Origin: an uncultured Christensenella sp.
GTDB taxonomy: Bacteria > Bacillota > Clostridia > Christensenellales > Pumilibacteraceae
Assembly (NCBI GenBank): GCA_910585055.1
Contig: CAJUBY010000001.1
Location: forward strand, 56,255 to 120,254
Direction of reading: 5' to 3'
DNA length: 64,000 nucleotides
Shown: piece by piece, positions 28,495 to 57,096 of the stretch
How positions within the stretch are numbered: position 1 is the first letter of the stretch
Layout: every line of letters begins with the position of its first letter
Position numbers and translations under genes: made by a program
Notes under the pieces: generated by a model
The model's database searches: none
What the model saw: only the letters and a program-made list of their open reading frames with translations
Told to the model about the DNA's origin: nothing

Positions 28495-28607
28495 TACGTA
28501 ATAACGTTTACGGTCGATCCGACCGAGGTTAACGGTTTACGGTAAAGACATCTGTTTGTAAAGCACAAACAGGTAAAAAATTATACACTTTTTTATCATA
28601 AAAATAC

Positions 28608-28636: not shown

Positions 28637-28656
28637 TTTTCAAATATATAAAAATC

Positions 28657-28700: not shown

Positions 28701-28764
28701 ATGTTACAAAATTATTTTATCCGGCGGAAGCCGTTAATGTTCAATCCAAAAAAAGGAGCAAAGG

Positions 28765-38629: not shown

Positions 38630-38650
38630 GATATTAATTTTACGGGTTTA

Positions 38651-38742
38651 AAAAGACCGCGCGTTTGAAATGCACCGCAAAAGTCAGACAAAACTTTTGG
38701 AGGTGCATTTCAATTAGGGTTAAGATCGGCGCGGTCTTTTTT
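38651..38742 (+). terminator. nested-hairpin terminator after giant gene 1
   Basis: Outer stem AAAAGACCGCGC (38651-38662) pairs with GCGCGGTCTTTT (38729-38740). Inner stem TTGAAATGCACC pairs with GGTGCATTTCAA. A T6 run follows. Confidence 0.6.
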
Positions 38743-38872
38743 ATGTTCGACTCAAACCGATCGGGAGTTATACGGTGTTGTTTTTTTGTCGCGGAACCGT
38801 TCTCGTAAATCATTTATAAAGGCAAACGAGATTTTTTACGAAAGTTTTTATTAACGTATTTCATGAATTCGG

Positions 38873-38901
38873 TTGACAAACATCGCGCGGAATGTTATAA
38901 T
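38873..38901 (+). promoter_or_regulatory. consensus sigma-A promoter of giant LRR gene 2
   Basis: TTGACA (38873-38878), 17-nt spacer, TGtTATAAT (-10 at 38896-38901). Confidence 0.7.
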
Positions 38902-38922
38902 CCTGTTTAATATTGTGAGTTT

Positions 38923-38963
38923 GTCAAGACAACGGCGTCGGGAGTGTTTTCCTACGCCGTTTT
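38923..38963 (+). promoter_or_regulatory. conserved leader hairpin plus U-tract (copy 2 of 3)
   Basis: GTCAAGACAACGGCGTCGGGAGTGTTTTCCTACGCCGTTTT. Outer stem AACGGCGT/ACGCCGTT, inner stem GGGA/TTCC, then U4. Confidence 0.65.
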
Positions 38964-39090
38964 ATAATAGACAAGATCAACGGCAAGAAAAACTGTATCG
39001 AGCCGGTATCCGTACCCGAAATGCACAAAAAGCGTAACGGGCACATGTAAAAAACAATAAAATATACAACGACCTCAAAAGGAGCAAAGA

Positions 39091-41223: not shown

Positions 41224-44200
41224 GGTATACGTCGGGTATATATTTAACGGTTGGTATAACTCGATAGGCGGTTCCGACGGTAACGGAATGGAAATAACCG
41301 ACGGTGAACTGTTCGATATTGCAAGCGACACGGTTCTTTTTGCCGATTGGAAGAACGGTACGTACGACATAACGCTCGATTACGGCAGCGGTCACGCGTC
41401 ATCTACCGGCAACGGAAAGGGTACCGTACAATATCTCAACGACTATACGCTGGAAGTGCCCGTCCATGACGACGGCAGAATGGTTTTTGTCGGATGGTAC
41501 AGTAACCGTAACGGCTCGGGCGAAAGGTATACCGATCAGGACGGAAAAAGCACCGATAAATGGAAAAACCGTTTCGGTGTCACTATGTATGCGCACTATA
41601 TAGAAGCGTTTAAATTCGTATATCTTCCTAACAGCGATTCGTATTCGGTCGTAAAATCGGATAAGCTTTCCTCGTCGGCTTTGACGCACGTTAAAATACC
41701 GGCGTATTACGACGATGGCGAGCACGGCAGTAAAAAAGTAACGATTGTGGACGGATATGCCTTTAGCGGATGCAGCAAACTGACGGAGATATCCATACCG
41801 GACACCGTAACTACGATAGCAGTAATGTCGTCCGCTTTCAAAGACTGTTCGAAACTCGAAAAAGTAAATGTTTATCACGTTGACGGCGTTATAGAGCCGC
41901 TGTACAGCACGTCCGATTCCGGGTTGCTGATGTATAAGAACGGAACGAGTAATGTCAACGAGTTGGTGTACGTCCCTGCCGCAAAGACGGGAATATTGAC
42001 CATCCCCGATACCGTAAACGCGATATTGGTCGATGTTTTTGCCGGCACGAAACTCGAAACGATCATAATACCGTCGAGTGTGATGCGTATCGACAAAGGC
42101 GCATTCAAATCGTCGACCGAACTTAACGAAATCAGGTTTTTGCCGAAGCTTCCCGGCGACGGAAAATTATCGGAGCTGTCCATAGCCGACGGAGCGTTCG
42201 ATCTGTGTTCCGGTTTGCAAAAAATCACTTTTCCCGCCCGAATGAAGACCTTTAACGCGGCGATTTTCGATTACTGCAAGGCTCTTACAGAGATCGACAT
42301 GGAAATAAGCGACGAAGCGGTATATAAAGCAGTTGACGGTATGCTTGTCAAAGACCGTACTCTGGTATTTTTCCCGACGGGAAAGAAAACGTGCAGGATA
42401 ACTACGGATATAACGGAAATAGGCGAAAGAGCATTTTACGATGCGGACGGACTGACATCCGTCGATATACCCAACTGGATAACTACAATACACAGCAGCG
42501 CTTTTGCGGAATGTTCCGCGCTTATGAGCGTAACGTTCAACGGCGGCGTCGGAGCGAGGAATCTTATAATAGGCGAAAGTGCGTTCGAACACTGCTCGTC
42601 GCTTTCGAGCATAGTGTACAACAACGCGCCGCAGATAACCGGCATGGGTGTAAGAGCTTTTGCAAAATGTACCGGTCTTCGAAGTTTTACCGTGCTTGAT
42701 ACTGTGTCGGAACTGTCGGAAAGCGTTTTTGCCGGATGCTCCAACCTTGCCGAAATAAATCTCGGCAATTCGCTCAAGACCATAGGCAAACAGGCGTTTT
42801 CGGGCTGTAAGGCTTTGACCGAAATTTCTTTCCCGTCGTCGCTGACAGGCGTAAGCGAAAAAGCGTTCGAAGCGTGTTCGGCATTAAAGACCGTTCGGTT
42901 TGCCGACGTATGCGAAAGCCTTACGCTCGGCTCCAATACGTTTGCCGACTGTACGTCTATCAAAACTATATCGTTGCCCGACTATGTTACATCGCTTGGA
43001 AGCGGCGCGTTTTCGGGTTGCTACAATCTTACGATAATAGATATAGACGAAAACAACAAATCTTTCGCGTCGTACGAAAACGTTATATATTCGCTTGACG
43101 CCGACGGCACATATACCGGCATAGTTTTTTATCCGTATACCAAAACGGGCGAAGTCGTATTGCCCGAAAAGATGACCGTTATCGGCGGTGTTTTTAAGAA
43201 TAATACAAGCATAACTAAGGTCACTATTCGCAGTACGGTGACGCAGATAGACGATACAGCGTTTTACGGATGTTCTAATTTGCGCTCGGTTGAGTTTTTA
43301 CCGCCGGAGACCGCAAAGGAAAGAACCGTAGCGGAAGAGCTTACGATAGGCGTCGGAGCTTTTAATAAATGTACGTCGCTCGTCTCGGTGATATTGCCGG
43401 AACGCCTTACGGAAGTGTCGGAGTATATGTTTCAAGGATGCACGTCGCTCGTCAGCGTGTCTATTCCGTCGACCGTTACCAAGATCGGCAGAGACGCGTT
43501 TAACGGCTGTAAGATGTTGACAACGGTAACTTTCGAAAAACGTACGGAAACGGTTGCCGCGGACACCGAACATGGGCGGTCGGAAGTGTCGACTAAACAG
43601 GTATGCGATATCGATTCCATAGGCTATAGGGCGTTTTATAATTGCTCGGCGTTGGCTTCTGTCACAATCCCGTACAGCGTAAGCACGGTATTTGCCGATG
43701 CGTTTTATAATTGTACGGCGTTATCCGAGCTTGTATTCGAAGACGGAGATACTCCGTTGGAAGTATATAACGACACCTCGTTAGATAGCTTTGGTTACAC
43801 TTCCGGTGTGTTTTTCGGTTGTACGGCGCTTACGGAAGTGACTTTGCCGGAAAGATTAAACCGTATTGCCAATAACATGTTTTACGAATGCACGTCGCTT
43901 GTAGGCGTAAATCTGCCCGGCAATATAAAAAATTCAACGTTTACTCAGCGCGCCGAAAAAACCGCGACTATAGATAATAAAGGAGTGGTCACGGACGCGT
44001 CGTCACAGACCAGGAATAATCTGAATCAAAGTTACGGCGGTATGGCGATAGGGCACGGGGCATTCGGCGCATGTTCGGCGCTTAGAACGGTAACCTGCAC
44101 GAAAAACAGTAAAAGCGAAGGCACGGTATCGTTCGGCGACAGACCGTTTAACTCATGTACGTCGCTCGACAGCGTAGAACTTCCGTCGCGGTTCGGTAAA

Positions 44201-47200
44201 AAAAGCGATACGGCTGATGACGAAGTTTGGTACAGCGCTCACGGAGGCAACAGTGATACAAGTTATCCCTTTGCGAATTGTAACAATTTGCAAAACGTTT
44301 ATATTGAAAGGGGAGGGGAATTTGCGTACGATATAGACGGCGTCGTGTATTCGGCAAGCGGTAAAACGCTGTTCTATTGTCCTCTCGGAAGGACTTCGAT
44401 AACTATACCGGACACCGTGGAAACGATCGGTGCCAATGCGTTCAGGAACGGCATTATTTCTGAAGTAAAATTCCAAGAAGAGCAGGACGGATATACCGGC
44501 GATAAAACGACGCTGCCCGATCTGACTGTAGGCGCTTCTGCATTCTATTTCTGTAAGTCGCTGCAATCGATAAAACTTCCTTCTCGGTTAAAAACATTGT
44601 CGGAAAGCGCATTCGGCAGCTGTTCCAACTTGTCGAGCGTTACGTTTGCCGACGATTGCGGTCTTACGGATATAGGAGCTTCGGTTTTCTCGTCTACGGG
44701 AATAACCGCAATCGTTCTGCCTAAAACCGTAACGACGCTGGGCGCTACCGTATTCAGCGGCGTTAAGCTTGCGGAAATAACGTTGCCGGACGGAATTATG
44801 AACAAGTTGATAACGCTCGGTTGCGCTGTCCCCGAAACTATAAAAACGTATTCCGCCGCCGGCGATATAATACTGCTTCCCGGCGAAGAGATAATAGAAG
44901 GGACTAAACTCGTCAAATTCTCGGGCGTGCCCGTAACGGAAGACGGAACTTACACCGTTGCCGCAAATATAACCGAAATATGCGATAACGCGTTCTTTAA
45001 CAATCAAAACGTAAAACACATTCGCTTCGCACAAGGCAGCCAAATAGCGAGCATAGGACAGTACGCATTTGCCAATTGCAAAAATCTTTTGGATATAGAA
45101 TTCCCCGATGATTGCGCTATAACCGATATTTCCGATTATGCGTTCCAAAACTGCACTTCGATTAACGGAATAACGGTGCCCGGTCGCGTAACGAGAGTGG
45201 GCAAGTTTGCTTTCGACGGATGTTCGGATCTCGCTGTGCTCGAGTTCGATCAATATACGCAGACATCGGACGGCGGCGAAACGTCGTCTGTATACAGTAT
45301 CGAACATCTCGACGAAGGCGCGTTCCGCAGTACGGGTCTGAATACGGTAACTTTGCCCGGATCGGTGACCAAACTCGGGCGTATAACAAACGGAGCGACT
45401 ACGACAGTGAACAACGTATTTGCAAATTGCGCGTCGCTTTCGACCGTTACTTTTGCCGCAGGTTCGGAAAAGCTGCTTATTTCCACAAGCACGAGCAGTA
45501 GCGGACACATGTTCGATAAGTGTGCGTCGCTTACGACAATTAACTTTAATAGCAGATTGGATTATCTGCCGCAGGGTATTTTTTATAATTATACGGCGTT
45601 GACTACCGTCACCGGAATTAATAATATAACATCTATAGGTAATTATGCGTTCAGCGGCTGTGTAGCTTTGTCTGAATTCGAAATACCGGTGGGCGTCATT
45701 GCCGTGGGACAGAAGGCATTCTTTAATTGTGCGGGATTAACGAAACTTTCGTTCGCCGAAGGCTCGGACAATACGGTAAAGAGCGCAAATATAACTTATT
45801 CAAACGGCGCGATATCGAAAACCGCGAATATCACTTCTACGAGTAACGCTCCTTTTAACGGTTGCTCAAAACTCGGCGCGATCGATTGCGGCAATAGAAA
45901 GTTCGATTTGAGTACAAGTATAATGTTCGCCAACAGCGGCGTGACCGAGCTGAAAAATATACAATTCGAAAAAACGGTATTGGTAAAAAGCGCGTTCGAA
46001 GGCGCAGCGCTCACGAACGTCGATTTTCTTGACGGTATTACAAAAATCGGTCAAACTGCGTTTAAAAACTGCAAATCGTTGACGGCGGTAACGATACCGG
46101 CTTCGGTAACAACTGTTGATAAAGGAAATACATTTGACGGTTGTTCGGAACTTACGGATGTAACGCTCAATAATGCGGCATATAGCGACAGTATGTTTGC
46201 CAACTGCACAAAGCTTCAAACGGTTAATTTCGCCGCGTGTGCGACGGCTATCCCCAACAGAATGTTCTATAATTGCTCGGAGCTTACCGCCGTTACTTTT
46301 GCAGCTAATGCCGATGCTTCTGCGTCGCTTACCATAACGAACGCGTCGAGCACAACATACAGCCCTTTTTATGAATGCACGTCGCTTGTTTCCGTAAACT
46401 TTAACGGACGCAAAGTAAGCATTGGAAATAACGCGTTTAACGGCTGTACTTCGCTTGCCAACGTAAACGGCATGGAAAACGCGACTAACATCGGGAACAG
46501 TGCGTTTAGCGGCTGTGCGCTTACTTCGGTGACTATCGGTGATTCTGTAACGACGCTCGGGACCGGGGCATTCCAAAACAACACAAAACTTTTATCGGTA
46601 AGCATAACGACCGATAAGTTTACGACGCTCGGTTCGTCGACATTCTACGGCTGTACGAATCTCGCTACCGTAACGTTTACCGGCGACGGAAGCGCGCTCA
46701 CCACTATAGGCGCATGGGCGTTCGGTAAATGTTCGTCGCTCGAAAGTATACGGCTTCCCGACGGCATAACCACTATTTACAACGGTGCGTTTGAAAACTG
46801 CACTTCGCTCACACAGGTCAATTTCCCGAGCAGTCTTGTTACAATAAGCGAAAACGCATTCTACAAATGTGCTATGACAAGCGTGGATTTACCGGCGTCG
46901 GTAAGCGAGATAGGCGACAGCGCGTTCGCGTACAATTCGGCGCTTTTGAGTGTGTCGGTATCGACAGACAGTTTCCCGAGGTTGGGAGCGTATATGTTCT
47001 CCAATTGCGTAAATCTCGCAACTGTGGAATTTAAAGGCGAAGGCATAGTGCTCGAAGAGTTCGGCGAAGGCGCGTTTTATAAGTGCGGAGCGCTTAGATC
47101 GATAACGTTGCCGAAAAACATCAAGTTCATAGGCAGCAACGCATTTGCTAATACGGGCTTGAGCGAGATATCATTGCACGAAGGCGTATTGAGCGTAGGC

Positions 47201-48940
47201 GACAGCGCTTTCGGCAACTGTATGTCTCTTACGACGGCAAATATCCCTGCAAGCGTTACCGAACTTTCTGGCAATCCGTTTGCCGGAAGCGTTAATCTCA
47301 CGGATCTTACGGTCAGCGAGGACAACGAGATCTATTCCGTAGTCGACGCGGTCATTTACTCGGGCGGCGGCAATACCATAGTCGGCTGTCTCGCTACCAA
47401 GACGGGCGAGTTCAGTATGGATAACGCCGTGACCGTTATCGAGTCGGGTGCGTTTATGAATTCCAAAGTGGAAAAAGTGGTCATAGCGGAAGGCGTTACG
47501 CAGATCGACAGCTATACATTCTACGGCTGTACCGAGCTTACAAGCGTGACTATTCCGTCGAGCGTAGTCAGCATCGGCGATTACGCGTTTCGCGGCTGCA
47601 GTTCGCTCGCCGACATAGCTATCCCGAACGGCGTAGTCAGCATAGGCAATTACGCGTTTTCCGGGTGTATCGGTCTTAACACAGTATCTCTGCCTGAAAC
47701 TCTCGTCAATCTCGGCACCAATATTTTCGAAGGCTGCGAGCGGCTCAACAACTTGGTCGTGCCGGCAAGCGTCGAAAAGCTTACCGATTGCATGTTCAAG
47801 GATTGTACGGCACTCACGACGCTTACATTTGCACCGAACAGCAAGCTTGCGAAGTTCGGCATGAACGTGTTCGAAAACAGCGGTCTTACCGAAATAACAG
47901 TTCCCGTCGGAGTTTTGTATCTTAATAAAAGCGAATTTTACAGGGCCGGAAACCTTACTAAGGTCACCTTCGAAAGCGGTAATATGCCGTTGCAGATAAA
48001 CGGTAATTCAAACACAAATAAACCGTTCGAAGGTTGCGATAACTTAGCCGAAATCGATTTTAACGGTCGAGTAACTTACTTGCAATCTTATGCGTTCAGC
48101 GATTGTGCCGGTTTGAGTGTTGTCAGCTGGGACGATATAGTCGAAATAGGAGGAAACGTATTTAGGAATTGTGTAAGTCTGTCGAACGTATCGCTGCCGT
48201 CCAAACTAAAAACAGTTACAGGATACGCGTTTTACGGCGCCGATGTAAAAACTTTGCATATATCCGCCGGTGTTAAATCGATAGAAGCCTATGCGTTCAT
48301 GGGGACGAATATTGTAGAACTCGAGATTCCCAAAACATTGGAGCGGTTCGGCACGGGGGCTTTTGCCGACTGTACAGAGCTTACGACCGTAAGATTCGAA
48401 GACGGATTTGTAAATAAAGGCTTCAATATAGAAAATTATGTTTTAAGTAATATATTCAAAGGCTGTATTAAACTAAATCGAGTTTCATTGTCCAATACCA
48501 TGACGGAGATCGTGCAAGGTATGTTCGAGGGCTGTTCGATGCTTGAAGATATAGATATTCCGGCGAGTGTCACCGCAGTGAAAGCCAACGCATTCAAAGA
48601 TTGTTCCAAATTAAAGAGCGTGAAGTTTAACGGTAATTTGTTGACGCTCTTGAGCGAGCAAGCTTTCGCAAATTGTACTTCGCTTACATCGGTGTCCTTG
48701 CCGCAGTCGCTTACTTATATCGGCGCCAACGTGTTCTCGGGGTGCGCCGGCTTAACTTCTATCGTTATCCCCGTAAAAGTATCTAATATGAACTTAAACG
48801 CTTTTGCCGATTGGGACGGCACAAAAACGATATATGTTCCGGGCTATGCCGATGCGGAAGCCGCAGGCTGGACGGAAGGCTGGAACGGCAGCGCCAACGT
48901 TATTTGGGGCAGAGGTCCCGATATTTCTGCAGCCGAGTGA
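39098..48940 (+). CDS. giant surface lipoprotein paralog (3,280 aa), same architecture as 28772-38629
   Basis: Residues 1-709 are identical to gene 1. The remainder is collinear but strongly diverged (LRR_5-type repeats throughout). Confidence 0.9.
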   Translation: MGIKKETKKRICAVAALVGSVSAGGALVACGSEEKPVEKAGAEAGVYYFDAGGEEYTMALGDGKHVTLMMGAEKKEGTYGIKDGEIEIKFGKDDVARGAVKETEIALKYGGLDMRFYKKVYYEVRYDSVDGSEIGSVRVLNGKHAEKPADPVKENSMFLGWYVDEEYTMPYIFSAEGVSGDITLYAQWAELVPGAQEYVVRFDLNYETDEKIGNKQTIGGKLYDLPKPGGREGYEFKGWWISAYEDGERLTSEVTKESRIEENRTLYAVWEEKGNGNRLKTPLVSTEGKTVQWNRVEGASSYTVEVENTAGEKRVYQGLTATRQELELTEAGDYKITVTAVKSGNSGENSRGGESWYRYKALARVSMFSVSETSSLVYNGVENAERYYIKVECGNASHKHDRYDNGTSTYYNFANCTMQEGGIKFTVTAEAEGWASSTSVTYVYNRILDGVKEVAYEKETQSIRWASVKNATGYIVEVNGEREEITGTVYSVKGYDPGELKIKVTPKTKGYNSPKGTEITVRKEELAAPKGLELTGTELSWDAVKGAEGYTVKIGEKTYETDRNVYDITEAIAEEPSASGEYRISVKANGEKGSEYSDEIRVRAQTLRGTLKYGDGKVRWGSVIGATEYRVRVNGGAEKTITGGTESEVTLTRRGINEIEVMYAAGETESAWEKLEVTGYAVEFDSRGGTAVDTVYLATGDRLVLPSAPVYVGYIFNGWYNSIGGSDGNGMEITDGELFDIASDTVLFADWKNGTYDITLDYGSGHASSTGNGKGTVQYLNDYTLEVPVHDDGRMVFVGWYSNRNGSGERYTDQDGKSTDKWKNRFGVTMYAHYIEAFKFVYLPNSDSYSVVKSDKLSSSALTHVKIPAYYDDGEHGSKKVTIVDGYAFSGCSKLTEISIPDTVTTIAVMSSAFKDCSKLEKVNVYHVDGVIEPLYSTSDSGLLMYKNGTSNVNELVYVPAAKTGILTIPDTVNAILVDVFAGTKLETIIIPSSVMRIDKGAFKSSTELNEIRFLPKLPGDGKLSELSIADGAFDLCSGLQKITFPARMKTFNAAIFDYCKALTEIDMEISDEAVYKAVDGMLVKDRTLVFFPTGKKTCRITTDITEIGERAFYDADGLTSVDIPNWITTIHSSAFAECSALMSVTFNGGVGARNLIIGESAFEHCSSLSSIVYNNAPQITGMGVRAFAKCTGLRSFTVLDTVSELSESVFAGCSNLAEINLGNSLKTIGKQAFSGCKALTEISFPSSLTGVSEKAFEACSALKTVRFADVCESLTLGSNTFADCTSIKTISLPDYVTSLGSGAFSGCYNLTIIDIDENNKSFASYENVIYSLDADGTYTGIVFYPYTKTGEVVLPEKMTVIGGVFKNNTSITKVTIRSTVTQIDDTAFYGCSNLRSVEFLPPETAKERTVAEELTIGVGAFNKCTSLVSVILPERLTEVSEYMFQGCTSLVSVSIPSTVTKIGRDAFNGCKMLTTVTFEKRTETVAADTEHGRSEVSTKQVCDIDSIGYRAFYNCSALASVTIPYSVSTVFADAFYNCTALSELVFEDGDTPLEVYNDTSLDSFGYTSGVFFGCTALTEVTLPERLNRIANNMFYECTSLVGVNLPGNIKNSTFTQRAEKTATIDNKGVVTDASSQTRNNLNQSYGGMAIGHGAFGACSALRTVTCTKNSKSEGTVSFGDRPFNSCTSLDSVELPSRFGKKSDTADDEVWYSAHGGNSDTSYPFANCNNLQNVYIERGGEFAYDIDGVVYSASGKTLFYCPLGRTSITIPDTVETIGANAFRNGIISEVKFQEEQDGYTGDKTTLPDLTVGASAFYFCKSLQSIKLPSRLKTLSESAFGSCSNLSSVTFADDCGLTDIGASVFSSTGITAIVLPKTVTTLGATVFSGVKLAEITLPDGIMNKLITLGCAVPETIKTYSAAGDIILLPGEEIIEGTKLVKFSGVPVTEDGTYTVAANITEICDNAFFNNQNVKHIRFAQGSQIASIGQYAFANCKNLLDIEFPDDCAITDISDYAFQNCTSINGITVPGRVTRVGKFAFDGCSDLAVLEFDQYTQTSDGGETSSVYSIEHLDEGAFRSTGLNTVTLPGSVTKLGRITNGATTTVNNVFANCASLSTVTFAAGSEKLLISTSTSSSGHMFDKCASLTTINFNSRLDYLPQGIFYNYTALTTVTGINNITSIGNYAFSGCVALSEFEIPVGVIAVGQKAFFNCAGLTKLSFAEGSDNTVKSANITYSNGAISKTANITSTSNAPFNGCSKLGAIDCGNRKFDLSTSIMFANSGVTELKNIQFEKTVLVKSAFEGAALTNVDFLDGITKIGQTAFKNCKSLTAVTIPASVTTVDKGNTFDGCSELTDVTLNNAAYSDSMFANCTKLQTVNFAACATAIPNRMFYNCSELTAVTFAANADASASLTITNASSTTYSPFYECTSLVSVNFNGRKVSIGNNAFNGCTSLANVNGMENATNIGNSAFSGCALTSVTIGDSVTTLGTGAFQNNTKLLSVSITTDKFTTLGSSTFYGCTNLATVTFTGDGSALTTIGAWAFGKCSSLESIRLPDGITTIYNGAFENCTSLTQVNFPSSLVTISENAFYKCAMTSVDLPASVSEIGDSAFAYNSALLSVSVSTDSFPRLGAYMFSNCVNLATVEFKGEGIVLEEFGEGAFYKCGALRSITLPKNIKFIGSNAFANTGLSEISLHEGVLSVGDSAFGNCMSLTTANIPASVTELSGNPFAGSVNLTDLTVSEDNEIYSVVDAVIYSGGGNTIVGCLATKTGEFSMDNAVTVIESGAFMNSKVEKVVIAEGVTQIDSYTFYGCTELTSVTIPSSVVSIGDYAFRGCSSLADIAIPNGVVSIGNYAFSGCIGLNTVSLPETLVNLGTNIFEGCERLNNLVVPASVEKLTDCMFKDCTALTTLTFAPNSKLAKFGMNVFENSGLTEITVPVGVLYLNKSEFYRAGNLTKVTFESGNMPLQINGNSNTNKPFEGCDNLAEIDFNGRVTYLQSYAFSDCAGLSVVSWDDIVEIGGNVFRNCVSLSNVSLPSKLKTVTGYAFYGADVKTLHISAGVKSIEAYAFMGTNIVELEIPKTLERFGTGAFADCTELTTVRFEDGFVNKGFNIENYVLSNIFKGCIKLNRVSLSNTMTEIVQGMFEGCSMLEDIDIPASVTAVKANAFKDCSKLKSVKFNGNLLTLLSEQAFANCTSLTSVSLPQSLTYIGANVFSGCAGLTSIVIPVKVSNMNLNAFADWDGTKTIYVPGYADAEAAGWTEGWNGSANVIWGRGPDISAAE
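41738..48840 (+). repeat. BspA-type LRR array of giant gene 2 (approximate bounds)
   Basis: Periodic LRR_5-like units. Confidence 0.7.
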
Positions 48941-48996
48941 CCGTATGACATGACGCCGTGATACTCGGAAATGCCACGAAAGTGTAAAGATCGAAG

Positions 48997-49034
48997 AACA
49001 CCGCCCGACAAAACATGTCGGGCGGTGTTTTTTT
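48997..49034 (+). terminator. rho-independent terminator after giant gene 2
   Basis: AACACCGCCCGACA-aaac-ATGTCGGGCGGTGTT followed by T7. Confidence 0.85.
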
Positions 49035-49058
49035 AATCCAAAGCGTTCCTTTTTTTGC

Positions 49059-49088
49059 TTGACAATGCATATAATATAGTGGTATAAT
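49059..49088 (+). promoter_or_regulatory. consensus sigma-A promoter of the MoxR/VWA/LRR operon
   Basis: TTGACA (49059-49064), 18-nt spacer, TGgTATAAT (-10 at 49083-49088). Confidence 0.65.
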
Positions 49089-49106
49089 AACACAACGTAT
49101 ATTTCC

Positions 49107-49153
49107 GTAACAGACAACGGCGTCGGGAATCTTTTTCCCTTGCGCCGTTTTTT
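49107..49153 (+). promoter_or_regulatory. conserved leader hairpin plus U-tract (copy 3 of 3)
   Basis: GTAACAGACAACGGCGTCGGGAATCTTTTTCCCTTGCGCCGTTTTTT. Outer stem AACGGCG/CGCCGTT, inner stem GGGAA/TTCCC, then U6. The first 21 nt are identical to copy 1. Confidence 0.65.
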
Positions 49154-49272
49154 ATTCGGAACGGTCGGTCGGCAATATCAAAGCGGTAACGGGTCGGTCG
49201 GTCGCATAAGGTACGCACATAGCGTTTATATGCGGAACTGTGCAGCCTCGGGTTTACCGCAAAGGAGCGATC

Positions 49273-50283
49273 ATGGGACAGACATTCGAAAAGTATAAAA
49301 AACGGCTTATTCTCGAAGGCGTGATAAAATCATTGTTTTCGGGTCTTATCGTCGGATGCGGCGTAAACTTTACCGTAGCGTTCGTAACGTGGTTTACTGC
49401 GTTCGAAGGACTGTGGCTTGCGATAGGGCTGGGTATAGCCGCGCTGGCAGTATCGGCTCCGCTGTTTTATATTTTTAAGTTTAAGCCGACGTCCGAGGCT
49501 ATAGCGCGCAGGATCGACAGACTCGGACTGGACGAGCGTATCGTCACCATGAGAGAGCTGGAAAACGATACTTCGTACATCGCCATGCGTCAGCGCGAAG
49601 ACGCAATGCGGCATCTTGAAACCGTAAACGCAAAAAATATAAAGTTTAAATTTTCCGCGTTTTTGATAGCGCTTGTTATAGTCTGTCCCGTAGCGGCTGC
49701 CGGCATGACGACGGTTTCCGCGCTTTCGGACAGCGGTATAATTCCCGGTCCGATCGATCCGGGCGACGGCGACGAGAAGATAACGTATTACGAAGTGGAA
49801 TATACGGTAGACAACGACGATGCCGGCGAGATAATAGGCGCCGATCCCATACAGGTAGTCGCGGAAGGCGAAACCACGGAATGGGTAACGGCGGTCGCTG
49901 CCGAAGGCTGGCAGTTCGACGGCTGGGACGACGGTTATAAAGAGGCGACGCGCTGCGACATGGATATCACCGATAACATGGTGTTTACCGCGATGTTTAC
50001 GGAAGTCGAAGAGGGCGACGGCGACGAGGGCGAACCGGGCGATCAGCCCGACGATCAACCTGCCGATCCGAGCAACGGCGACAATAACGGCGATAACAAT
50101 AATTCCGGCACCCCGGGAGTGCCGCCCGATTTCGGATCGAGCAACATTATAGACGGCGACACGTACTATAAACTCGTATACGAAGAGTATTATCAAAAGG
50201 CTATGCAGTATCTTGCGGAAAATGAGGATATTCCCGATCATCTTCGCAAGATGATAGAATCGTACTTTAATATTTTGCTGTGA
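49273..50283 (+). CDS. membrane protein (3 predicted TM) with Flg_new-like ectodomain and acidic D/E/G/N/P linker
   Basis: The ATG at 49273 follows AAAGGAG. TM helices lie near residues ~15-75 and ~130-150. The ectodomain YYEVEYTVDNDDAGEIIG...EGWQFDGWDDGY...MVFTAMF resembles the Listeria-Bacteroides repeat. Confidence 0.6.
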   Translation: MGQTFEKYKKRLILEGVIKSLFSGLIVGCGVNFTVAFVTWFTAFEGLWLAIGLGIAALAVSAPLFYIFKFKPTSEAIARRIDRLGLDERIVTMRELENDTSYIAMRQREDAMRHLETVNAKNIKFKFSAFLIALVIVCPVAAAGMTTVSALSDSGIIPGPIDPGDGDEKITYYEVEYTVDNDDAGEIIGADPIQVVAEGETTEWVTAVAAEGWQFDGWDDGYKEATRCDMDITDNMVFTAMFTEVEEGDGDEGEPGDQPDDQPADPSNGDNNGDNNNSGTPGVPPDFGSSNIIDGDTYYKLVYEEYYQKAMQYLAENEDIPDHLRKMIESYFNILL

Positions 50284-50342
50284 TCTGCGGCAAATTTATA
50301 TAAGAAAAACAAATAATCAAACCGTATCGAGAGAGGTCAAAT

Positions 50343-51488
50343 ATGGTAACGGAAAAAGACATCACCAAATTCAGCGAGCAGTGCAAACAGATTTTTGCGC
50401 AGGTCGAGCGTGACGTAATAGGGCAAAAAGACATCGTGGAAGGCACCGTCATAGCCATGATCGCCGGCGGCAACGTATTGCTCGAGGGCGTTCCGGGCGT
50501 TGGCAAGACTCGTCTCGTTCGGTCGCTCGGTCGCGTTTTCAATCTGCCGTTTTCGCGTATCCAGTTTACGCCCGATCTTATGCCGGCGGACGTGACAGGT
50601 ACGAATATAATAGTCAAGGACGAAAGCGGCAATTCGTCGTTCCGTTTTCAGCCCGGACCTATATTCAGCAACATAATTCTTGCGGACGAGATAAACCGAG
50701 CGACGCCCAAAACGCAGAGCGCGCTGCTCGAAGCCATGCAGGAACATACAGTTACGGTAATGGGCGTGTCGCGTACTCTCAACGAGCCGTTTTTCGTTCT
50801 TGCGACGCAGAACCCTATAGAACAGGACGGTACGTATCCTCTGCCGGAAGCGCAGATGGACCGTTTTATGTTTAAGCTCATAGTCAAAAACCCGAGTTTG
50901 GACGAGCTTATGGACATAGTCAATATGACGCAAAAGACCATGGCGGAAGTTGCGGACTCGGCGTGCAGCGGAAACGAGCTGCTTGCAATGCGCGCCACGG
51001 CAAACCAGATCCCCGTTGCGCAGGATGTAATGCGATATGCCATGACATTGTGTTCGGCGACTCATCCCGACAGCGAGTGCGCGTCGGAAGCCGCCAAAAA
51101 ATACGTTAGGTTGGGTGCAAGTCCCCGTGCAGGTCAGGCGCTTATTTCGGCGGCAAAAGTAAAAGCGCTGTTAAAGGGACGTTTCAACGTGGCGTACAGC
51201 GACGTCAACGAGCTTGCGTATCCCGTTCTGCGTCACCGCATGAAGATGAATTTCGAAGCGATAGCCGGAAGAGTTTCCGCCGACGAAGTCATTCGTATGA
51301 TACTGGACGAGCTTGCCAAAAAGTATAAGATAGGATCTGCAAACGAACAGCCCGAAACGCCTGTTTCCGCGCAACAGACCGGCAACGACGATGCCGCGCA
51401 GCAGACTTCCGAACAGTCGGACAGCGCGGAACAGCCGGCAAACGAAGAAAAAGGCGAAAAGAAGAAACGGAGATTCGCTAAAAAATAA
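50343..51488 (+). CDS. MoxR-family AAA+ ATPase with ~50-aa low-complexity Lys-rich tail
   Basis: Walker A LLEGVPGVGKT and Walker B with the sensor region ILADEINRATPKTQSALLEAMQE. RBS GAGAGG. Confidence 0.9.
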   Translation: MVTEKDITKFSEQCKQIFAQVERDVIGQKDIVEGTVIAMIAGGNVLLEGVPGVGKTRLVRSLGRVFNLPFSRIQFTPDLMPADVTGTNIIVKDESGNSSFRFQPGPIFSNIILADEINRATPKTQSALLEAMQEHTVTVMGVSRTLNEPFFVLATQNPIEQDGTYPLPEAQMDRFMFKLIVKNPSLDELMDIVNMTQKTMAEVADSACSGNELLAMRATANQIPVAQDVMRYAMTLCSATHPDSECASEAAKKYVRLGASPRAGQALISAAKVKALLKGRFNVAYSDVNELAYPVLRHRMKMNFEAIAGRVSADEVIRMILDELAKKYKIGSANEQPETPVSAQQTGNDDAAQQTSEQSDSAEQPANEEKGEKKKRRFAKK

Positions 51489-52387
51489 TGAAGGTCTCTT
51501 ACTTAAACGATGACTTTTTCAGTCGGTTGGAGACTTTGGCGTTAAATCTGCGTACCGATCTGTCCGGATTTTTCGGAGGCAAACACCTTGTCCGTACATA
51601 CGGTCAAACGGTGGAGTTTGCCGATTATCGGGAATACCAGTTGGGCGACGACATTCGGCGTATCGATTGGAATTTGTACAGCAGGTTTGAAAAGTTTTTC
51701 ATAAAGCTGTTTACCGACGAAAGACAAATGCATGTCCGGATTTTTTTGGACTGCTCGGCTTCCATGGGAAAAGCCGATCCGCAAAAGGCTGCGTACGCCG
51801 TAAGTGCGGCGGCGGCTTTGGGGTTTTTGGCTGTCCATAATACCGATAAACTGTCTTTCAAACTGATCAAGGGCAATACTGCCGAAGATCCGTTCGGTAC
51901 TATAGTGGGGAAAACATCGTTTTTCCGTGCGATAGGCGAGCTCGAAAACGTGCAGTTCGCCGGCGAATCGGATTTGGCGTCCGCCGTGACCGGGTGTGCG
52001 GATACCGGCGGCAACGACGGTTTGACCGTTATAATTTCCGACTTTTTTACGGAAAGCGAATGGAAAAAAGCGGTCGATTACCTTACTTATAAAAAGCGAC
52101 AGGTGCTTTTGTTGCAGGTAATGACACCCGACGAAGTCGAACCTATGTATTACGGCAGAGTCAATCTTATAGATTCGGAATCGGCGGATCTTGCCGATCC
52201 CAAAAATATGAAAATGCGGATAACACGCGCCATGCAGATGGCGTACCGCGAAGCGTTGGACGACATGATCGGCGAACTGCGCACTTACTGTACTTCGCGT
52301 GGCGCCGAGTTTATTTCGGTACAGACCGACAAACCCATCGAAAAAATGTTGTTCGGCGAGTTATTGAAAGTAGGTATGATCTCATGA
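51488..52387 (+). CDS. DUF58 domain protein (VWA-like, MoxR partner)
   Basis: FADYREYQLGDDIRRIDWNLYSR... and a MIDAS-like LDCSASM. There is a 1-nt overlap with the moxR stop (TAATG). Confidence 0.85.
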   Translation: MKVSYLNDDFFSRLETLALNLRTDLSGFFGGKHLVRTYGQTVEFADYREYQLGDDIRRIDWNLYSRFEKFFIKLFTDERQMHVRIFLDCSASMGKADPQKAAYAVSAAAALGFLAVHNTDKLSFKLIKGNTAEDPFGTIVGKTSFFRAIGELENVQFAGESDLASAVTGCADTGGNDGLTVIISDFFTESEWKKAVDYLTYKKRQVLLLQVMTPDEVEPMYYGRVNLIDSESADLADPKNMKMRITRAMQMAYREALDDMIGELRTYCTSRGAEFISVQTDKPIEKMLFGELLKVGMIS

Positions 52388-54294
52388 GTTTGCTAACGCC
52401 CCTGGGACTTTTGGCGCTTATCGGGATATTTGTCCTTATTCTGATATACCTGCTGAAGCCCAATTATCAACAAAAGGTGGTTTCCAGTACGTTCGTATGG
52501 AAGTTGAGCCTTAAGTACAAAAAGAAGCGGTTGCCGATCAGCAGATTCCGCAATATACTGTTGCTCATTTGCCAGCTGCTCGTGATCGCGGCGTGCGCGC
52601 TGTTACTTACGCAACCGTTCATCCCTTCGGAATCCAACGAACATAAGATCGAAAAAATAATAATTCTCGATGCGTCGGCGAGCATGCTTGCCGAATCGGG
52701 CAATGCGACGCGCTTCGAGCGCGCTGTGGCGGAAGCGACGGAATTGTCGGAAGAGGTGCTATCTAGCGCCGACGGCATTATCACCGTCATTCTTGCCGGC
52801 GAAACGCCGGCATACGTTCTGGAACGGGTAGGGTCGACTGCGGCTGCCGACGTCGAGACCGCGCTCGGCGCGTTGATCGAGTACGGCGAGTCGGCTTGCA
52901 CATACGGTACCGTCGACATGGACGGCGCGGTGGATCTTGCCGGCAACGTGCTGGTGCAGAATCCCGACGCGGAGATCATCCTGTATACGGACACGGAATA
53001 TATCGACAAGGCGGGAATAACGGTCAAAAAGATGACCGATGCCGCGGACTGGAATGCGGCGGTGCTCGGTTGTTCCGCGGAAGTGATAGACAGAAACTTT
53101 TATACATTCAAGATAAATGTTGCGAGTTACGGCAGAGATACAGAGCTCAAGGTAGTGTGCGAGATATCGGGGGTGAACGCCGAAGAACGTACGGTAAGCC
53201 TGGAGCAAAACGTGTACTGCAACAACGACGAAACCGTCACCGTTATATTCGATGAGTTTAACAGCGATATAGCCGTGTATTCTTACGATACCGTGCATGT
53301 GTATTTCGATAACGTTATAGATTCGTTCGAGTACGACGACGAATTCTGGCTGTACGGCGGAAAAAAGGAAAAGCTGCGTATACAGTACGCCAGCTCGGGC
53401 ATAAATCCGTTTTTCGGCGCGGCGTTTATGGCTTTACGCGAAAATCTGCGTCCTACGTGGGATATCGAAATAAAGGAAGTCACCAACGGCAAGCCCGAAA
53501 CTTCCGGGTTCGACTTTTATATGTTCGAATACGACGCCATTCCGTCGACGATGCCCACCGACGGCGTTGTCATGTTTTCGTCTCCGCAAAAAGCATTGCC
53601 GACAGCATCGGGTATAGTGCTGAAAAACATAGTGCCCGTAAAGAATGCCGTAATCGACCGCGGCAATCCGCATCCGTTTACCGAATATCTGCCGCTCGAC
53701 AATCTGGGCGTAAACAGATATCAGAGCATTACGGTCGCCGACGGATTCGAAGAATTGCTTTATCTCGAGGGCAATCCGGTATTTTTGGTCAAAAACGAGG
53801 AAGCCGTTAAGATAATAGCGATGTTGTTCGGCGTGGATATGTCGTGGACGGCGGTATTTGTCGATTTCCCGATGCTTATGGGAAATATATTCGAATATCT
53901 GTTCCCGGCGACTACCGATAAATATGTCTACGACATCGGAGAATCGGTGTTGCTCAAAGCGCGCGGTAGCAGTATGACGGTAAGTTCCGATACTCTAAAC
54001 GAAGTTTATACGGAGCATATGCAATCGATAAAACCGACGGCGCCCGGGTCGTACAATGTACGTCAGCCGATCATGGGCAACGATGCCGCCAACGTAAAGG
54101 TAATGACTTCGAACTTCTTTGTAAAAGTGCCGGCGTCGGAGAGTAACATCCGCGCCGTAGAGGAAGGGCTTAAACGTCTCGACAGAAAGACCAAGTCCAA
54201 ACCGGCCGATATAGATATAGTGTTATATTTCGCAATAGCGCTCGTCACGCTGTTGTTTGCGGAACGCCTGCTGCAATCCAGAGATCAATTTTAA
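52384..54294 (+). CDS. BatA-type N-terminal double-TM domain plus VWA domain membrane protein
   Basis: The N-terminus MSLLTPLGLLALIGIFVLILIYLLKP...FVWKL resembles the aerotolerance BatA N-terminal domain. MIDAS IILDASASM and a C-terminal TM are present. ATGA overlap with the DUF58 gene. Confidence 0.75.
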   Translation: MSLLTPLGLLALIGIFVLILIYLLKPNYQQKVVSSTFVWKLSLKYKKKRLPISRFRNILLLICQLLVIAACALLLTQPFIPSESNEHKIEKIIILDASASMLAESGNATRFERAVAEATELSEEVLSSADGIITVILAGETPAYVLERVGSTAAADVETALGALIEYGESACTYGTVDMDGAVDLAGNVLVQNPDAEIILYTDTEYIDKAGITVKKMTDAADWNAAVLGCSAEVIDRNFYTFKINVASYGRDTELKVVCEISGVNAEERTVSLEQNVYCNNDETVTVIFDEFNSDIAVYSYDTVHVYFDNVIDSFEYDDEFWLYGGKKEKLRIQYASSGINPFFGAAFMALRENLRPTWDIEIKEVTNGKPETSGFDFYMFEYDAIPSTMPTDGVVMFSSPQKALPTASGIVLKNIVPVKNAVIDRGNPHPFTEYLPLDNLGVNRYQSITVADGFEELLYLEGNPVFLVKNEEAVKIIAMLFGVDMSWTAVFVDFPMLMGNIFEYLFPATTDKYVYDIGESVLLKARGSSMTVSSDTLNEVYTEHMQSIKPTAPGSYNVRQPIMGNDAANVKVMTSNFFVKVPASESNIRAVEEGLKRLDRKTKSKPADIDIVLYFAIALVTLLFAERLLQSRDQF

Positions 54295-54309
54295 AGGAGG
54301 ACGGTAGCA

Positions 54310-57096
54310 ATGACGAACTTTTCGATAGATTTTACCAATCCTTGGCTGCTGTTCCTTCTTATACCGGCAGTGTTCATCGTGCTGTTCCCGTATTTCCGTA
54401 TGGCAAAACGGTATAGACGCACGCGCAACCGTATAGTGTCCATGGTACTGTGCATCACGGTAATGGTACTGGGTATCTCCGTACTTTCGGGGCTTCATTT
54501 CGATTACGATGTCGTAAACAACAACAACGAAGTGATATTGCTAATCGATGCGTCTTACAGCGGCGGCAATGTCGAAAACGAAAAGGAAGATTTTGTTCAG
54601 GGCGTCATAAACAGCAGTTCCGAAAACTTTAAAGTGGGCATTGTGACGTTCGGTTACGATACCGTTTATGCCGTACCGATAACAGCGGAAACGGACGGGA
54701 TATACAGGAAATATCTCGCCGCGCCGCGTCCGGACGACAGCGCATCCGATATATCCGGCGCTCTCGAGTATACGCGTACGCTTTTCAAAAATCCGGAGAC
54801 CGCAAAGATAGTGCTAATAAGCGACGGTCTGGAAACGGACGGAAGTGCGCTTTCGGTCATCCGTTCTATTGCCGCGGAAGGCATAAAAGTCGATACGGCT
54901 TGTTTCACGGCGGAACGTACGGAGTCGGAAGTTCAGTTGGTGGATATAACGTTGCCCAAAACCAATATCGCAGTGGGCGATAAGTTCAATGTATCGCTTA
55001 TGGTACTTAGTTCGTATCAGGGCAAAGCGACTTTTACCATGTACGATACCGTGTTCGACGACGAAATGAACGAAAGCACGCAGGTCGTTGCCGGCGTTTC
55101 GGATTTCGATTTGAAAACGGGCGAGCAAACGGTTACCGTAGAGCATGAGTTTAACGAGCCGGGAATGCACAGGCTGCATTTTTCGGTCGAGTCGGCCGGC
55201 GATACGCTTATGCAGAATAACGGATATTATTCGTATATCGATCTGCAGGTTTACGATAAAGTGCTTATAATCGAGCGCACTGCGGGCGAGTCGCAAGCTT
55301 TCGGCGATATACTCGCGGAAAAATACGAAACGGTCGATACCGTGACGGTGACCGATGCCGAAAACATGCCGCAAACCGTCGATGCCGTTCGTGAATACGA
55401 CCAAGTCGTAATGTTCAATATTTCCAATCTGGATATGCCGCAGGGCTTCGAGGCGGTACTCAATTCCTATGTGTCGGACTTCGGCGGCGGCATGCTTACC
55501 GTAGGCGGAAACAAAGAAGAAAACGGTAAGGAAGTCGCAAACACTTATAACAGAGAAGCGATGCTTCAGTCCGAATATTATCAGGCAATGTTGCCCGTTC
55601 AAGCTGTCGATTATACGCCGCCGCTCGGCACGGTCGTTATTATCGACCGGTCCGGCAGTATGATGTCCAACGATGCCACCACCGGAAAAAGGCTGTTTGA
55701 TCTTGCTAAGGAAGGCGCCAAGTCCTGTCTGTATGCGATGACGGAACGCGACTGGTGCGGAATAATGACTTTGGAAACGGGTTACAGCGAAGAGCTTACC
55801 CTTACGCCCCTTACTTTGCAGCATAAAATAGTGGAAGCAATAGACGCCATAAGCGACGAAGGCGGCGGAACTGCGTTCGCTCCGGCTATAGCGCAGGCAG
55901 GCAGAGCTTTGCGTGCGCTTAAAGAAGTCGAGAAAAAACATATAATCCTTGTGACCGACGGCGAGCCGGGAGATTCTTTCGATACCTATAACGCGGCTAT
56001 CGCGGAAAACACTAAAAACAATATAACTTTTTCCATAGTCGTAGTAGGCAATACCAACAGAAAAGATTTGGAGATCGCAGCGGAAGAAACGGGTAAAGGT
56101 CATTTTTATAAAGTAACAAACGGCGAAGAGCTTACGCGTATCATGCGCGAAGACCTTACCGTTCCCGAGATAAAAGATCTTATTTTCGACGAAAACGGAT
56201 TTACGCCAAGGATAGGGACGCACACGTCGGTCGTCAACGGCGTGCTCGATCTTATTACCGGAGAAAACGCCGAAGAGATGCCCAAAATGTACGGATACTA
56301 CGGCACCAAGCTTAAAAGCGGCGAAAACATAAAAGTCGATACTCCGCTGATGGGTGAATTTGTACCGCTGTACGCGCAGTGGGCATACGGCAAAGGTAAT
56401 GTCGGAAGCTTTATGAGCGATCTCAACGGAAATTGGTCTAGAGACTTTTTGGCTAGCAATGTCGGGAAGGCGTTTATATACGGTATGGTAAATGCGCTGT
56501 TCCCGACGGAGGATATAAGATCGCGCGATCTCGACGCTTTACTCAAGGAAGATAACTATAGTACGCAAATGAGCGTATATACGGAACTCAAGGAAACAGA
56601 AACGCTGGAGATAACCGTAACGCCGCCGCAGACCGACGGGAGAGCGGAGTCGGATTCGACCGTTATCAAGTTTACGGCAAAGGACAATTACAGCAGGGTA
56701 ACATTTAAAAATACCCTACCGGGCATTCACCGTATAGTACTGCAAAAGAAAGACGCGCAGGGTAATGTTTTATCGGAATTCGTTACCTACCGTGCTTTCT
56801 CGTATTCCAAGGAGTACGATGTATTTGCCGATACCGAAGCAGGTACGGCGCTTATGACCGATCTTGCAAAGGGCGGCAACGGGAAGGTTCTGACCGATCC
56901 GTGGGAAGCGTACGACAATTCGGTGGAGAACTTCCACAGAACGTACGATCCGCGCGTGCCGTTTATAATAATCGCGCTGATACTGTTCCTGCTCGACATT
57001 GCCGTACGCAAGTTCAAGTTTAAATGGCTGCACGAGATAATCCGCGACCGTAAAAACAGAAAGAACAACGCAAACGGCGAAAGGAGTGCGTCATGA
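54310..57096 (+). CDS. 928-aa membrane protein with two VWA domains and a central GATase1-like segment
   Basis: BatA-like N-terminal TMs. VWA1 reads LLIDASYSGG. VWA2 reads VIIDRSGSMMS...GGGTAF...ILVTDGEPGD. A C-terminal TM is present, and the RBS is AAAGGAGG. The GATase1-like call is by eye only. Confidence 0.75.
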   Translation: MTNFSIDFTNPWLLFLLIPAVFIVLFPYFRMAKRYRRTRNRIVSMVLCITVMVLGISVLSGLHFDYDVVNNNNEVILLIDASYSGGNVENEKEDFVQGVINSSSENFKVGIVTFGYDTVYAVPITAETDGIYRKYLAAPRPDDSASDISGALEYTRTLFKNPETAKIVLISDGLETDGSALSVIRSIAAEGIKVDTACFTAERTESEVQLVDITLPKTNIAVGDKFNVSLMVLSSYQGKATFTMYDTVFDDEMNESTQVVAGVSDFDLKTGEQTVTVEHEFNEPGMHRLHFSVESAGDTLMQNNGYYSYIDLQVYDKVLIIERTAGESQAFGDILAEKYETVDTVTVTDAENMPQTVDAVREYDQVVMFNISNLDMPQGFEAVLNSYVSDFGGGMLTVGGNKEENGKEVANTYNREAMLQSEYYQAMLPVQAVDYTPPLGTVVIIDRSGSMMSNDATTGKRLFDLAKEGAKSCLYAMTERDWCGIMTLETGYSEELTLTPLTLQHKIVEAIDAISDEGGGTAFAPAIAQAGRALRALKEVEKKHIILVTDGEPGDSFDTYNAAIAENTKNNITFSIVVVGNTNRKDLEIAAEETGKGHFYKVTNGEELTRIMREDLTVPEIKDLIFDENGFTPRIGTHTSVVNGVLDLITGENAEEMPKMYGYYGTKLKSGENIKVDTPLMGEFVPLYAQWAYGKGNVGSFMSDLNGNWSRDFLASNVGKAFIYGMVNALFPTEDIRSRDLDALLKEDNYSTQMSVYTELKETETLEITVTPPQTDGRAESDSTVIKFTAKDNYSRVTFKNTLPGIHRIVLQKKDAQGNVLSEFVTYRAFSYSKEYDVFADTEAGTALMTDLAKGGNGKVLTDPWEAYDNSVENFHRTYDPRVPFIIIALILFLLDIAVRKFKFKWLHEIIRDRKNRKNNANGERSAS

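Follow-up and report, generated by a model that had tools for sequence, protein, structure and literature searches.

A promoter-proximal leader with two competing RNA folds, a candidate ANTAR-type attenuator, precedes giant lipoprotein genes and a MoxR/VWA operon in an uncultured Christensenella sp.

Introduction

What does a short leader do that stands, little changed, behind three very strong promoters in the genome of an uncultured Christensenella sp.? The stretch analyzed here (the window) comprises 64,000 nucleotides (nt) of assembly GCA_910585055.1 (contig CAJUBY010000001.1, positions 56,255 to 120,254 of the forward strand), and in it the leader precedes two giant genes for BspA-type leucine-rich repeat (LRR) lipoproteins and a six-gene operon with MoxR, VWA and LRR products. 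The original prediction read these three units as one regulon with a common leader hairpin. We found that the leader can adopt two mutually exclusive RNA folds, that covariation supports both of them, and that strong matches to it are restricted to genomes that encode an ANTAR protein. It is probably a promoter-proximal transcription attenuator of ANTAR type, with the ANTAR protein as its reader. Coordinates are those of the window, whose genome is labelled G000; related genomes are numbered from G001 onward, and genera carry labels from g4 to g13.

Results

Three leaders stand behind near-consensus promoters

A 15-mer, AGACAACGGCGTCGG, is common to the three leaders (starts 28662, 38927 and 49112), and a longer 21-mer, CGTAACAGACAACGGCGTCGG, is identical in copy 1 (28657-28677) and copy 3 (49107-49127), as had been claimed. 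With up to two mismatches allowed, the 15-mer has four matches in the window against 0.26 expected, a number that none of 100 shuffles reached; three are the exact copies, and the fourth, with two mismatches, lies on the minus strand in coding sequence at 53558. The promoters and leader structures are as follows.

28608-28636, plus strand: promoter of copy 1, score 11/12, TG before the -10 box
28663-28705, plus strand: leader copy 1, with a mini-hairpin (28663-28674) and a terminator-like hairpin (28666-28698), then UUUUAUGUU
38873-38901, plus strand: promoter of copy 2, score 12/12, TG before the -10 box
38928-38968, plus strand: leader copy 2, with a mini-hairpin (38928-38939) and a terminator-like hairpin (38931-38961), then UUUUAUAAU
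49059-49088, plus strand: promoter of copy 3, TTGACA, 18 nt, TGgTATAAT, score 12/12, TG before the -10 box
49113-49124, plus strand: mini-hairpin of copy 3, P2-like, with GAC (49113-49115), hexaloop AACGGC (49116-49121) and GUC (49122-49124)
49116-49156, plus strand: terminator-like hairpin of copy 3, 5′ arm 49116-49123, 3′ arm 49142-49149, upper stem GGGAA/UUCCC
49148-49153, plus strand: U-run of copy 3, then AUU
49163-49172 and 49192-49201, plus strand: two GGTCGGTCGG repeats in the 119-nt spacer of copy 3
49261-49275, plus strand: Shine-Dalgarno sequence AAAGGAG and ATG of the first operon gene

No other site on the plus strand between 28500 and 64000 scores above 10/12. From the end of the -10 box to GAC it is 24 nt in copy 3 and 26 nt in copies 1 and 2, which bears out the claim that the leaders are placed alike behind comparably strong promoters. 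Each terminator-like hairpin is followed by UUUU(A/U), the sequence directly 3′ of copy 3 being UUUUUUAUU, and the hairpin energies of the three leaders are -26.3, -21.6 and -24.9 kcal/mol (z -6.1, -3.5 and -5.0; copy 3 last). Judged from sequence, such a large hairpin with a U-run has the anatomy of an intrinsic terminator.

The repeat reported earlier in the spacer of copy 3 is present. GGTCGGTCGG has a third window copy in coding sequence at 58926 (0/100 shuffles reach three) and only eight copies in the whole genome. The repeats resemble AACGG[CG]UCGG and so look like incomplete copies of the leader motif; they are absent from the orthologous leaders of the first operon gene (gene 49273).

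Two mutually exclusive folds covary among 51 leaders

To compare the folds we used an alignment of 51 leaders from G000 and 36 related genomes, and two covariance models, R1, made from the three window copies, and R2, made from 29 copies and about 55 nt long. The first fold is a mini-hairpin formed by the conserved 13-mer GAC.AANGGC.GUC(G), with a stem of 3-4 base pairs (bp) and a hexaloop. Its GAC/GUC stem and 6-nt loop occur in all 51 leaders, the inner pairs forming in 100%, 98% and 100% and a fourth, outer pair in 37/51. Within the loop, G4 is invariant (51/51), A2 is found in 50/51, and A1 and C6 are each found in 49/51, the two remaining copies having G at position 1. The second fold is the terminator-like hairpin, with a lower stem that is 97.1% paired over the 51 leaders. 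The 5′ arm of this terminator consists of the mini-hairpin's loop together with its 3′ stem; the two folds are mutually exclusive.

Each fold has its own record of paired changes. Of the two bases in pair 16-27, the first (G of GAC) is not part of the terminator stem, and the second (C of GUC) mostly forms a bulge in that stem; the pair is G-C in 43 leaders, A-U in 8 and unpaired in none (25, 4 and 0 in the first 29 leaders). The structure supplied to R1 and R2 did not include this pair, so the coupling is no product of the models. The eight A-U copies belong to six genomes and precede at least five unrelated genes, as judged by inspection of N-terminal sequences; the copies being related, these cases may stem from few events. 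In the terminator, pair 21-56 is AU in 20 leaders, CG in 15 and GC in 9, and pair 23-54 is GC in 43 and AU in 5. Loop positions 3 and 5 of the mini-hairpin vary, and the terminator 3′ arm changes to match them each time, whereas A1 and G4, the two bases fixed in ANTAR targets, do not vary in this way; both folds are thus under selection.

The terminator fold has a predicted energy of -20 to -22 kcal/mol, compared with -7 to -10 kcal/mol when the mini-hairpin is forced. Because a forced mini-hairpin, which alone amounts to about -2 kcal/mol, leaves the RNA 10-14 kcal/mol short of the terminator fold, the terminator is the predicted default state. The original prediction of a leader hairpin therefore stands in part: the hairpin is real, but what had been taken for a generic one is better described as a putative terminator-like attenuator with an ANTAR-type alternative hairpin.

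RNA crosses the hairpin into the downstream genes

Read-through RNA exists in the mouse gut, since assembled contigs from mouse-gut RNA libraries, from which true RNA ends and levels are not readable, run through the hairpin and U-run of copy 3 into the genes (X1, 49113-51500; X2, 49115-49553; X3, 49115-49946). The preceding RNA contig ends at 48942, and no listed piece lies over 48943-49112. Contigs of three runs from two studies start at 49113-49115, at the G or C of GAC and 18-20 nt past the predicted transcription start, which could reflect a processed 5′ end, a second start behind TATATT (49098-49103) or a fall-off in coverage. The copy-2 leader and 39182-40945 have no RNA cover in four runs, which is uninformative, as contigs break at repeats. 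In runs X3 and X5, a high-depth contig (190-298x) joins across 208 bases in the MoxR gene (50593-50802); it probably represents a conserved AAA_3 stretch from another organism.

The element is widespread and heads envelope genes in the genus

We searched a family sample of 117 genomes that includes 31 genomes of the genus, G000 among them. At E<=0.01, R2 found the element in 45/117 family genomes, in 20/30 other species of the genus with one to nine copies each, and in 8/9, 3/3, 5/17 and 5/15 genomes of four other genera. G000 carries a fourth full copy on contig C13, behind a TTGACA-17-TATTAT promoter and before the gene for a 393-aa secreted protein. The promoter context is general, as 50/51 copies have a promoter of at least 9/12 within 75 nt upstream (at least 10/12 in 47). 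GAC follows the -10 box after 6 to 39 nt, most often 9, and because this gap is 6-10 nt in 25/51 copies, the element lies at or next to the predicted transcription start in about half of them. Directly after the stem comes a run of 2-8 consecutive U, mostly 4-7 and often broken further on.

In the genus, the downstream gene encodes an envelope protein wherever its start could be called (22/22 and 11/11 in two sets). By inspection, these genes belong to at least 10 unrelated families, including lipoproteins, signal-peptide proteins and the membrane family of gene 49273, and many of the leader-bearing lipoproteins in relatives share an N-terminal GVYY...EY domain. In other genera the motif also precedes GOGAT-like and glutamate dehydrogenase (gdh) genes, and the tie to LRR or adhesin genes proposed earlier is accordingly too narrow, since the motif heads nitrogen-assimilation genes in sister genera.

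For gene 49273, a first scan of the genome contigs found no relative. Its 29 best orthologous loci gave three clear leader matches and one weak one, the remaining loci having a strong promoter with a different leader, from which it follows that the leader has been gained and lost.

The leaders had no Rfam match at the gathering score and none credible at E<=10. An unbiased search of the genus with the 13-mer gave 116 matches, against 24 for the reversed word. Among about 55 matches outside the R2 set, 40 were inspected: open frames of 150 codons or more contain 29 of them, and the other 11, which look intergenic, comprise one standard leader, two variants, one promoter overlap, four cases of a long palindrome and three unclear cases. 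Exact 14-mer matches in relatives were considered as leader copies and rejected, being coding sequence (D-N-G-V-G).

Some further occurrences and look-alikes were seen. A partial fifth occurrence in G000, CCGTAACGTTGACAACGGCGTCGG, is on the minus strand of contig C11 at about 22420-22433 (locus L004:1500-1535, minus strand), after an HMA-domain gene and before a membrane protein gene; here the word is part of a TTGACA-17-TATAAT promoter, supplying its -35 box and spacer, and there is no hairpin; G010 has a similar case (L248). The long palindrome containing the 13-mer is a repeated intergenic sequence, CGCCGAGCG GACAAAGGCG(T)CGCC ... GGCGATCGCCTTTGT..CGCTCGGCG, at loci L252, L253, L258 and L267 (G014, G018 and G020), and looks like a repetitive extragenic palindromic sequence or a miniature inverted-repeat transposable element. 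Near-consensus promoters with terminator-like hairpins of different sequence are present on C21 (minus strand, about 2871), C9 (plus strand, 28050), C2 (minus strand, 19568 and 41459) and C11 (minus strand, 36792), and altogether 17/318 promoter-like sites in G000 are followed by a terminator-like hairpin. One such non-motif promoter-hairpin precedes a phosphoglucomutase gene (pgm), which in G001 heads a pgm-glnA-ANTAR operon.

Strong matches are confined to genomes that encode an ANTAR protein

G000 encodes a single ANTAR protein (C67:2636-3202, minus strand; 188 aa; 55 bits against PF03861). It consists of a pseudo-receiver and an ANTAR domain, the receiver being degenerate and without a Pfam receiver match, and its nearest solved relatives are Rv1626, AmiR and the response regulator 6wsh. 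In G000 a purF-like amidotransferase gene and carA come next; the longer contig of G001 has the order pgm, glnA, ANTAR, purF-like, carA.

An ANTAR domain is encoded in 77/117 family genomes and in all 31 genomes of the genus. At E<=1e-4, R2 matched 28/77 ANTAR-encoding genomes and 0/40 without the domain, and at E<=0.01 it matched 40/77 and 5/40, counts that overstate independence, the genomes being kin. Only one of the five exceptions, G101 (92% complete), has a true copy; G037 is ambiguous, and the other three lack the mini-hairpin fold.

Similar loops stand before nitrogen genes of G000 itself. The gdh leader holds AGC.AAGGAC.GCU (AGCAAGGACGCUG), which overlaps the terminator and has the stem of the word known from the eut operon with a loop of the AANGRC type, and the glnN leader holds AGC.AAAGGC.GC(C); glnN denotes here a type III-like glutamine synthetase (GS), named from its N-terminal sequence and its length of 695 aa rather than by a family scan. 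A mini-hairpin of this kind (P2) with a terminator was found upstream of gdh in 5/20 ANTAR-encoding genomes by a strict script and in two more by eye, against 0/20 without an ANTAR domain, counts that are indicative only. Of the proposed regulon, the shared leader as a real, selected cis-element with a plausible common reader encoded holds up; its restriction to three LRR units does not, as the set extends to the fourth copy on C13 and, by their like loops, to gdh and glnN.

Genes downstream of the leaders in the window

The three units are as follows.

28772-38629, plus strand: giant BspA-LRR / Flg_new lipoprotein 1, 3285 aa (Pfam; lipobox LVAC)
39098-48940, plus strand: giant BspA-LRR / Flg_new lipoprotein 2, 3280 aa (Pfam; lipobox LVAC)
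49273-59870, plus strand: six-gene unit encoding a membrane protein, MoxR AAA_3, DUF58, BatA+VWA, VWA and a BspA-LRR lipoprotein (Pfam)

Pfam matches thus agree with the six-gene MoxR/DUF58/BatA/VWA/LRR operon described behind copy 3, and all three units do encode BspA-type LRR lipoproteins, as LRR_5 matches and lipoboxes occur in each (LALAC in the last operon gene). The product of gene 49273 is a membrane protein with a sub-threshold Flg_new_2 match. By its nearest named relatives, the MoxR protein places the organism among uncultured gut Bacillota. The two giant proteins are 47% identical overall, yet their first 90 residues are identical (28772-29041 and 39098-39367), which suggests recent gene conversion at the 5′ ends of the genes.

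Terminator-like hairpins are not enriched within the giant genes (15 in 28500-48499, compared with 25.6 in shuffles); between 48500 and 64000 there are 34, compared with 21.5, nearly all with weak 5-6 bp stems. The gene after the operon (60108-63035) encodes a 938-aa protein with the lipobox FAVGC and no Pfam match, and has a weak promoter-like site and no leader; the element is therefore not on every local lipoprotein gene. A flavin mononucleotide (FMN) riboswitch (RF00050) lies at 21141-21287 on the minus strand, with 89.2 bits against a gathering score of 66.2.

Discussion

A proposed single-hexaloop relative of ANTAR switches

We propose the following course of events for the leader. Transcription would begin at a very strong promoter, the terminator hairpin would form by default, and most transcripts would stop at the U-run after about 55 nt. 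The single ANTAR protein, when bound to the mini-hairpin, would hold it and withhold the 5′ arm, the terminator could not form, and RNA polymerase would read on into the two giant LRR genes, the MoxR/VWA/LRR operon or the fourth unit on C13. The four units would in this way be co-regulated, probably together with gdh and glnN, and the signal may be nitrogen status, as suggested by the place of the regulator gene beside glnA.

The closest known system is the eut operon of Enterococcus faecalis. There, the 5′ part of each terminator shares bases with a 13-nt word, AGCAANGRRGCUY, that forms a short stem with a hexaloop in which A1 and G4 are conserved and required (PMC3369931). In the crystal structure of EutV with RNA, the protein touches a single hexaloop, whose G4 is flipped out, and the minimal ANTAR binding motif has been redefined as a single hexaloop, P2 being embedded in the terminator stem (PMC8934654). 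The window leaders share with eut the short stem and the hexaloop with A1 and G4, a 13-nt word that is at the same time the 5′ part of the terminator (GACAANGGCGUCG here, AGCAAGGACGCUG at gdh), the mutual exclusion of mini-hairpin and terminator, an encoded ANTAR protein and the presence of several units per genome. They differ from it in that the element often lies within a few nucleotides of the predicted transcription start, that the regulator has a degenerate receiver, and that the targets go beyond nitrogen genes to giant LRR lipoproteins, other envelope proteins and a MoxR/VWA operon.

ANTAR targets are described as mostly nitrogen-management genes, including those for glutamate and glutamine synthesis (PMC3369931). 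In this respect our system resembles AmiR/amiE and NasR/nasF: in G001 the ANTAR gene comes after glnA, the solved structures closest to the G000 protein include that of AmiR, and gdh, glnN and GOGAT-like leaders carry the loop; unlike those regulons, the one in this genus has spread to envelope proteins. The BglG/SacY ribonucleic antiterminator (RAT) works on a like principle, in which a protein stabilizes one hairpin overlapping the 5′ arm of the leader terminator (PMC3369931), but RAT is 29-30 nt long and of different sequence.

Several observations weigh against an ANTAR-type attenuator. No second, upstream hairpin (P1) is conserved among the 51 copies; candidates in 9/51 are short, mostly A/T stems that lie mostly in untranscribed promoter DNA, and half of the copies have no room for one because the element is so close to the -10 box. 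The eut leaders have this recruitment hairpin, and antitermination there requires both hairpins at fixed spacing (PMC8934654). Loop position 6 is C here and R in the eut consensus. The kinship of the genomes weakens the co-distribution, including that of gdh. The ANTAR-encoding genera g6 (five genomes) and g10 (four genomes) lack any R2 match, and 10/31 genomes of the genus lack one at E<=0.01. In a variant leader before an OppA-like lipoprotein gene (L231 in G001 and L266 in G020), CGAC.AAUGGC.GUCG caps a terminator-like stem (CCUCUUUG/CAAGGGG, then a U-run) and does not compete with it. Lastly, a loose scan of G000 for AANGNN hexaloops with a terminator was unspecific, with 13 hits compared with 0-13 for control loops.

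By analogy, then, the element is one that would work like an ANTAR switch and is not a member of the canonical dual-hexaloop class; its lack of P1, the C at loop position 6, the degenerate receiver and the mainly envelope targets mark it as a variant. More tentatively, and with rather more doubt than confidence, we suggest that a P1-less, single-hexaloop ANTAR switch at the 5′ end of the transcript gates both the surface repertoire and nitrogen assimilation throughout the genus, through co-option of a glnA-linked regulator. Targets with only one hairpin may already be among those predicted for ANTAR proteins in PMC3369931. Word searches that paired ANTAR with surface or lipoprotein terms brought up no relevant paper, and the 2025 review PMC12591593 contains neither "lipoprotein" nor "surface protein".

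Other explanations of the leader

Surface proteins, glutamate dehydrogenase and glutamine synthetase are typically encoded by highly expressed genes, and the hairpin at their head could be of use with no specific reader, as a constitutive or NusA/NusG-dependent partial terminator that tempers the output of very strong promoters or, for abundant transcripts, as an mRNA stabilizer against 5′-end-dependent decay. The stem would lie at the RNA 5′ end in the 25/51 copies with the short gap to the -10 box, and it is at the hairpin's base that the RNA contigs starting at 49113-49115 begin. Stems that end in A-U pairs and U-runs that are short or interrupted recall NusG/NusA-dependent terminators (PMC8060035); those of Bacillus subtilis likewise have basal A-U pairs, an upstream A tract and interrupted distal U-runs, whereas they are defined by factor dependence and lack a conserved hexaloop word. 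A generic hairpin, however, needs neither invariant A, A, G and C at loop positions 1, 2, 4 and 6 nor the G-C/A-U coupling of a base outside the stem with one that is usually bulged, and it leaves the restriction of strong matches to ANTAR-encoding genomes unexplained; a stabilizer, moreover, would not need the U-run. For these reasons we regard a hairpin with no reader as unlikely, if the most serious of the competitors.

A second possibility is that the leader recruits a LoaP-like NusG paralogue for processive antitermination of the 10-kb genes. The leaders on which LoaP acts contain an RNA hairpin as well as a terminator (PMC12691694), and the dfn and mln leaders of Bacillus velezensis resemble ours in combining a hairpin and an intrinsic terminator before very long operons. 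G000 encodes such a paralogue (C31:5420-5986, plus strand, locus L227), which scores 119.7 bits against NCBIfam antiterm_LoaP (cut-off 125), and 27/31 genomes of the genus have one. However, the LoaP hairpin has a UNCG tetraloop and the terminator is a separate one downstream (PMC12691694), whereas the three window leaders have one hairpin each and no UNCG-tetraloop hairpin before the terminator. LoaP-like genes (at least 107 bits) are absent from the leader-bearing genera g9, g8, g13 and g4 and present in the leaderless g6, and G008 has the leader and no paralogue. The neighbours of the G000 gene are degV-, radC-, pth- and mfd-like, and in G022 some 4.4 kb, containing other open reading frames (ORFs), separate the paralogue from a leader downstream of it. 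Many leader-bearing genes in relatives are short, and the lack of enrichment of terminator-like hairpins in the giant genes also speaks against this reading. We set this explanation aside on distribution, as the paralogue does not track the leader, and consider it very improbable.

Equally poor are the prospects of the view that the leader has no function of its own and that the likeness was inherited with duplicated promoter-leader-gene modules. The giant genes are indeed paralogues with identical N-termini, and the GVYY...EY domain recurs in many leader-bearing lipoproteins, but the genes behind the copies belong, by inspection, to at least 10 unrelated families, among them that of gene 49273, which is unrelated to the giants; neither the promoter spacers nor the downstream spacers around them are alike, and covariation supports two folds.

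Least credible is a DNA operator, in which a transcription factor would bind the 13-mer as a duplex just downstream of or overlapping the promoter: the word does serve as -35 box and spacer with no hairpin on C11 of G000 (TTGACAACGGCGTCGG-N7-TATAAT) and likewise in G010 (TTGACAAAGGCGTCGG...TATCAT), and it lies at about +1 to +13 in many copies, but it follows the -10 box at anything from 6 to 39 nt, compensatory changes keep its RNA pairing with a 3′ arm at variable distance, the U-run and the strand orientation are constant, and its half-sites form no consistent palindrome.

Conclusion

An ANTAR-type attenuator at the head of the transcript is thus the account of the leader that we favor. Because the leader is selected, recurs in 51 copies with two covarying folds, and has a plausible reader encoded in the genome, treating its target genes as one regulon is a reasonable inference. 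If the proposal is right, nitrogen status would set what the cell displays on its surface, namely the giant BspA-LRR lipoproteins, other lipoproteins and the MoxR/VWA machine, and the largest surface proteins of this uncultured gut lineage would have a concrete switch tied to a nitrogen regulator. It would also show single-hexaloop antitermination at work in nature, a possibility that the structural work on EutV raised and that eut itself does not use. As R2 finds one to nine copies per genome in 20/30 related species, the regulon that would link nitrogen status to the cell surface can be mapped across the genus by computation.

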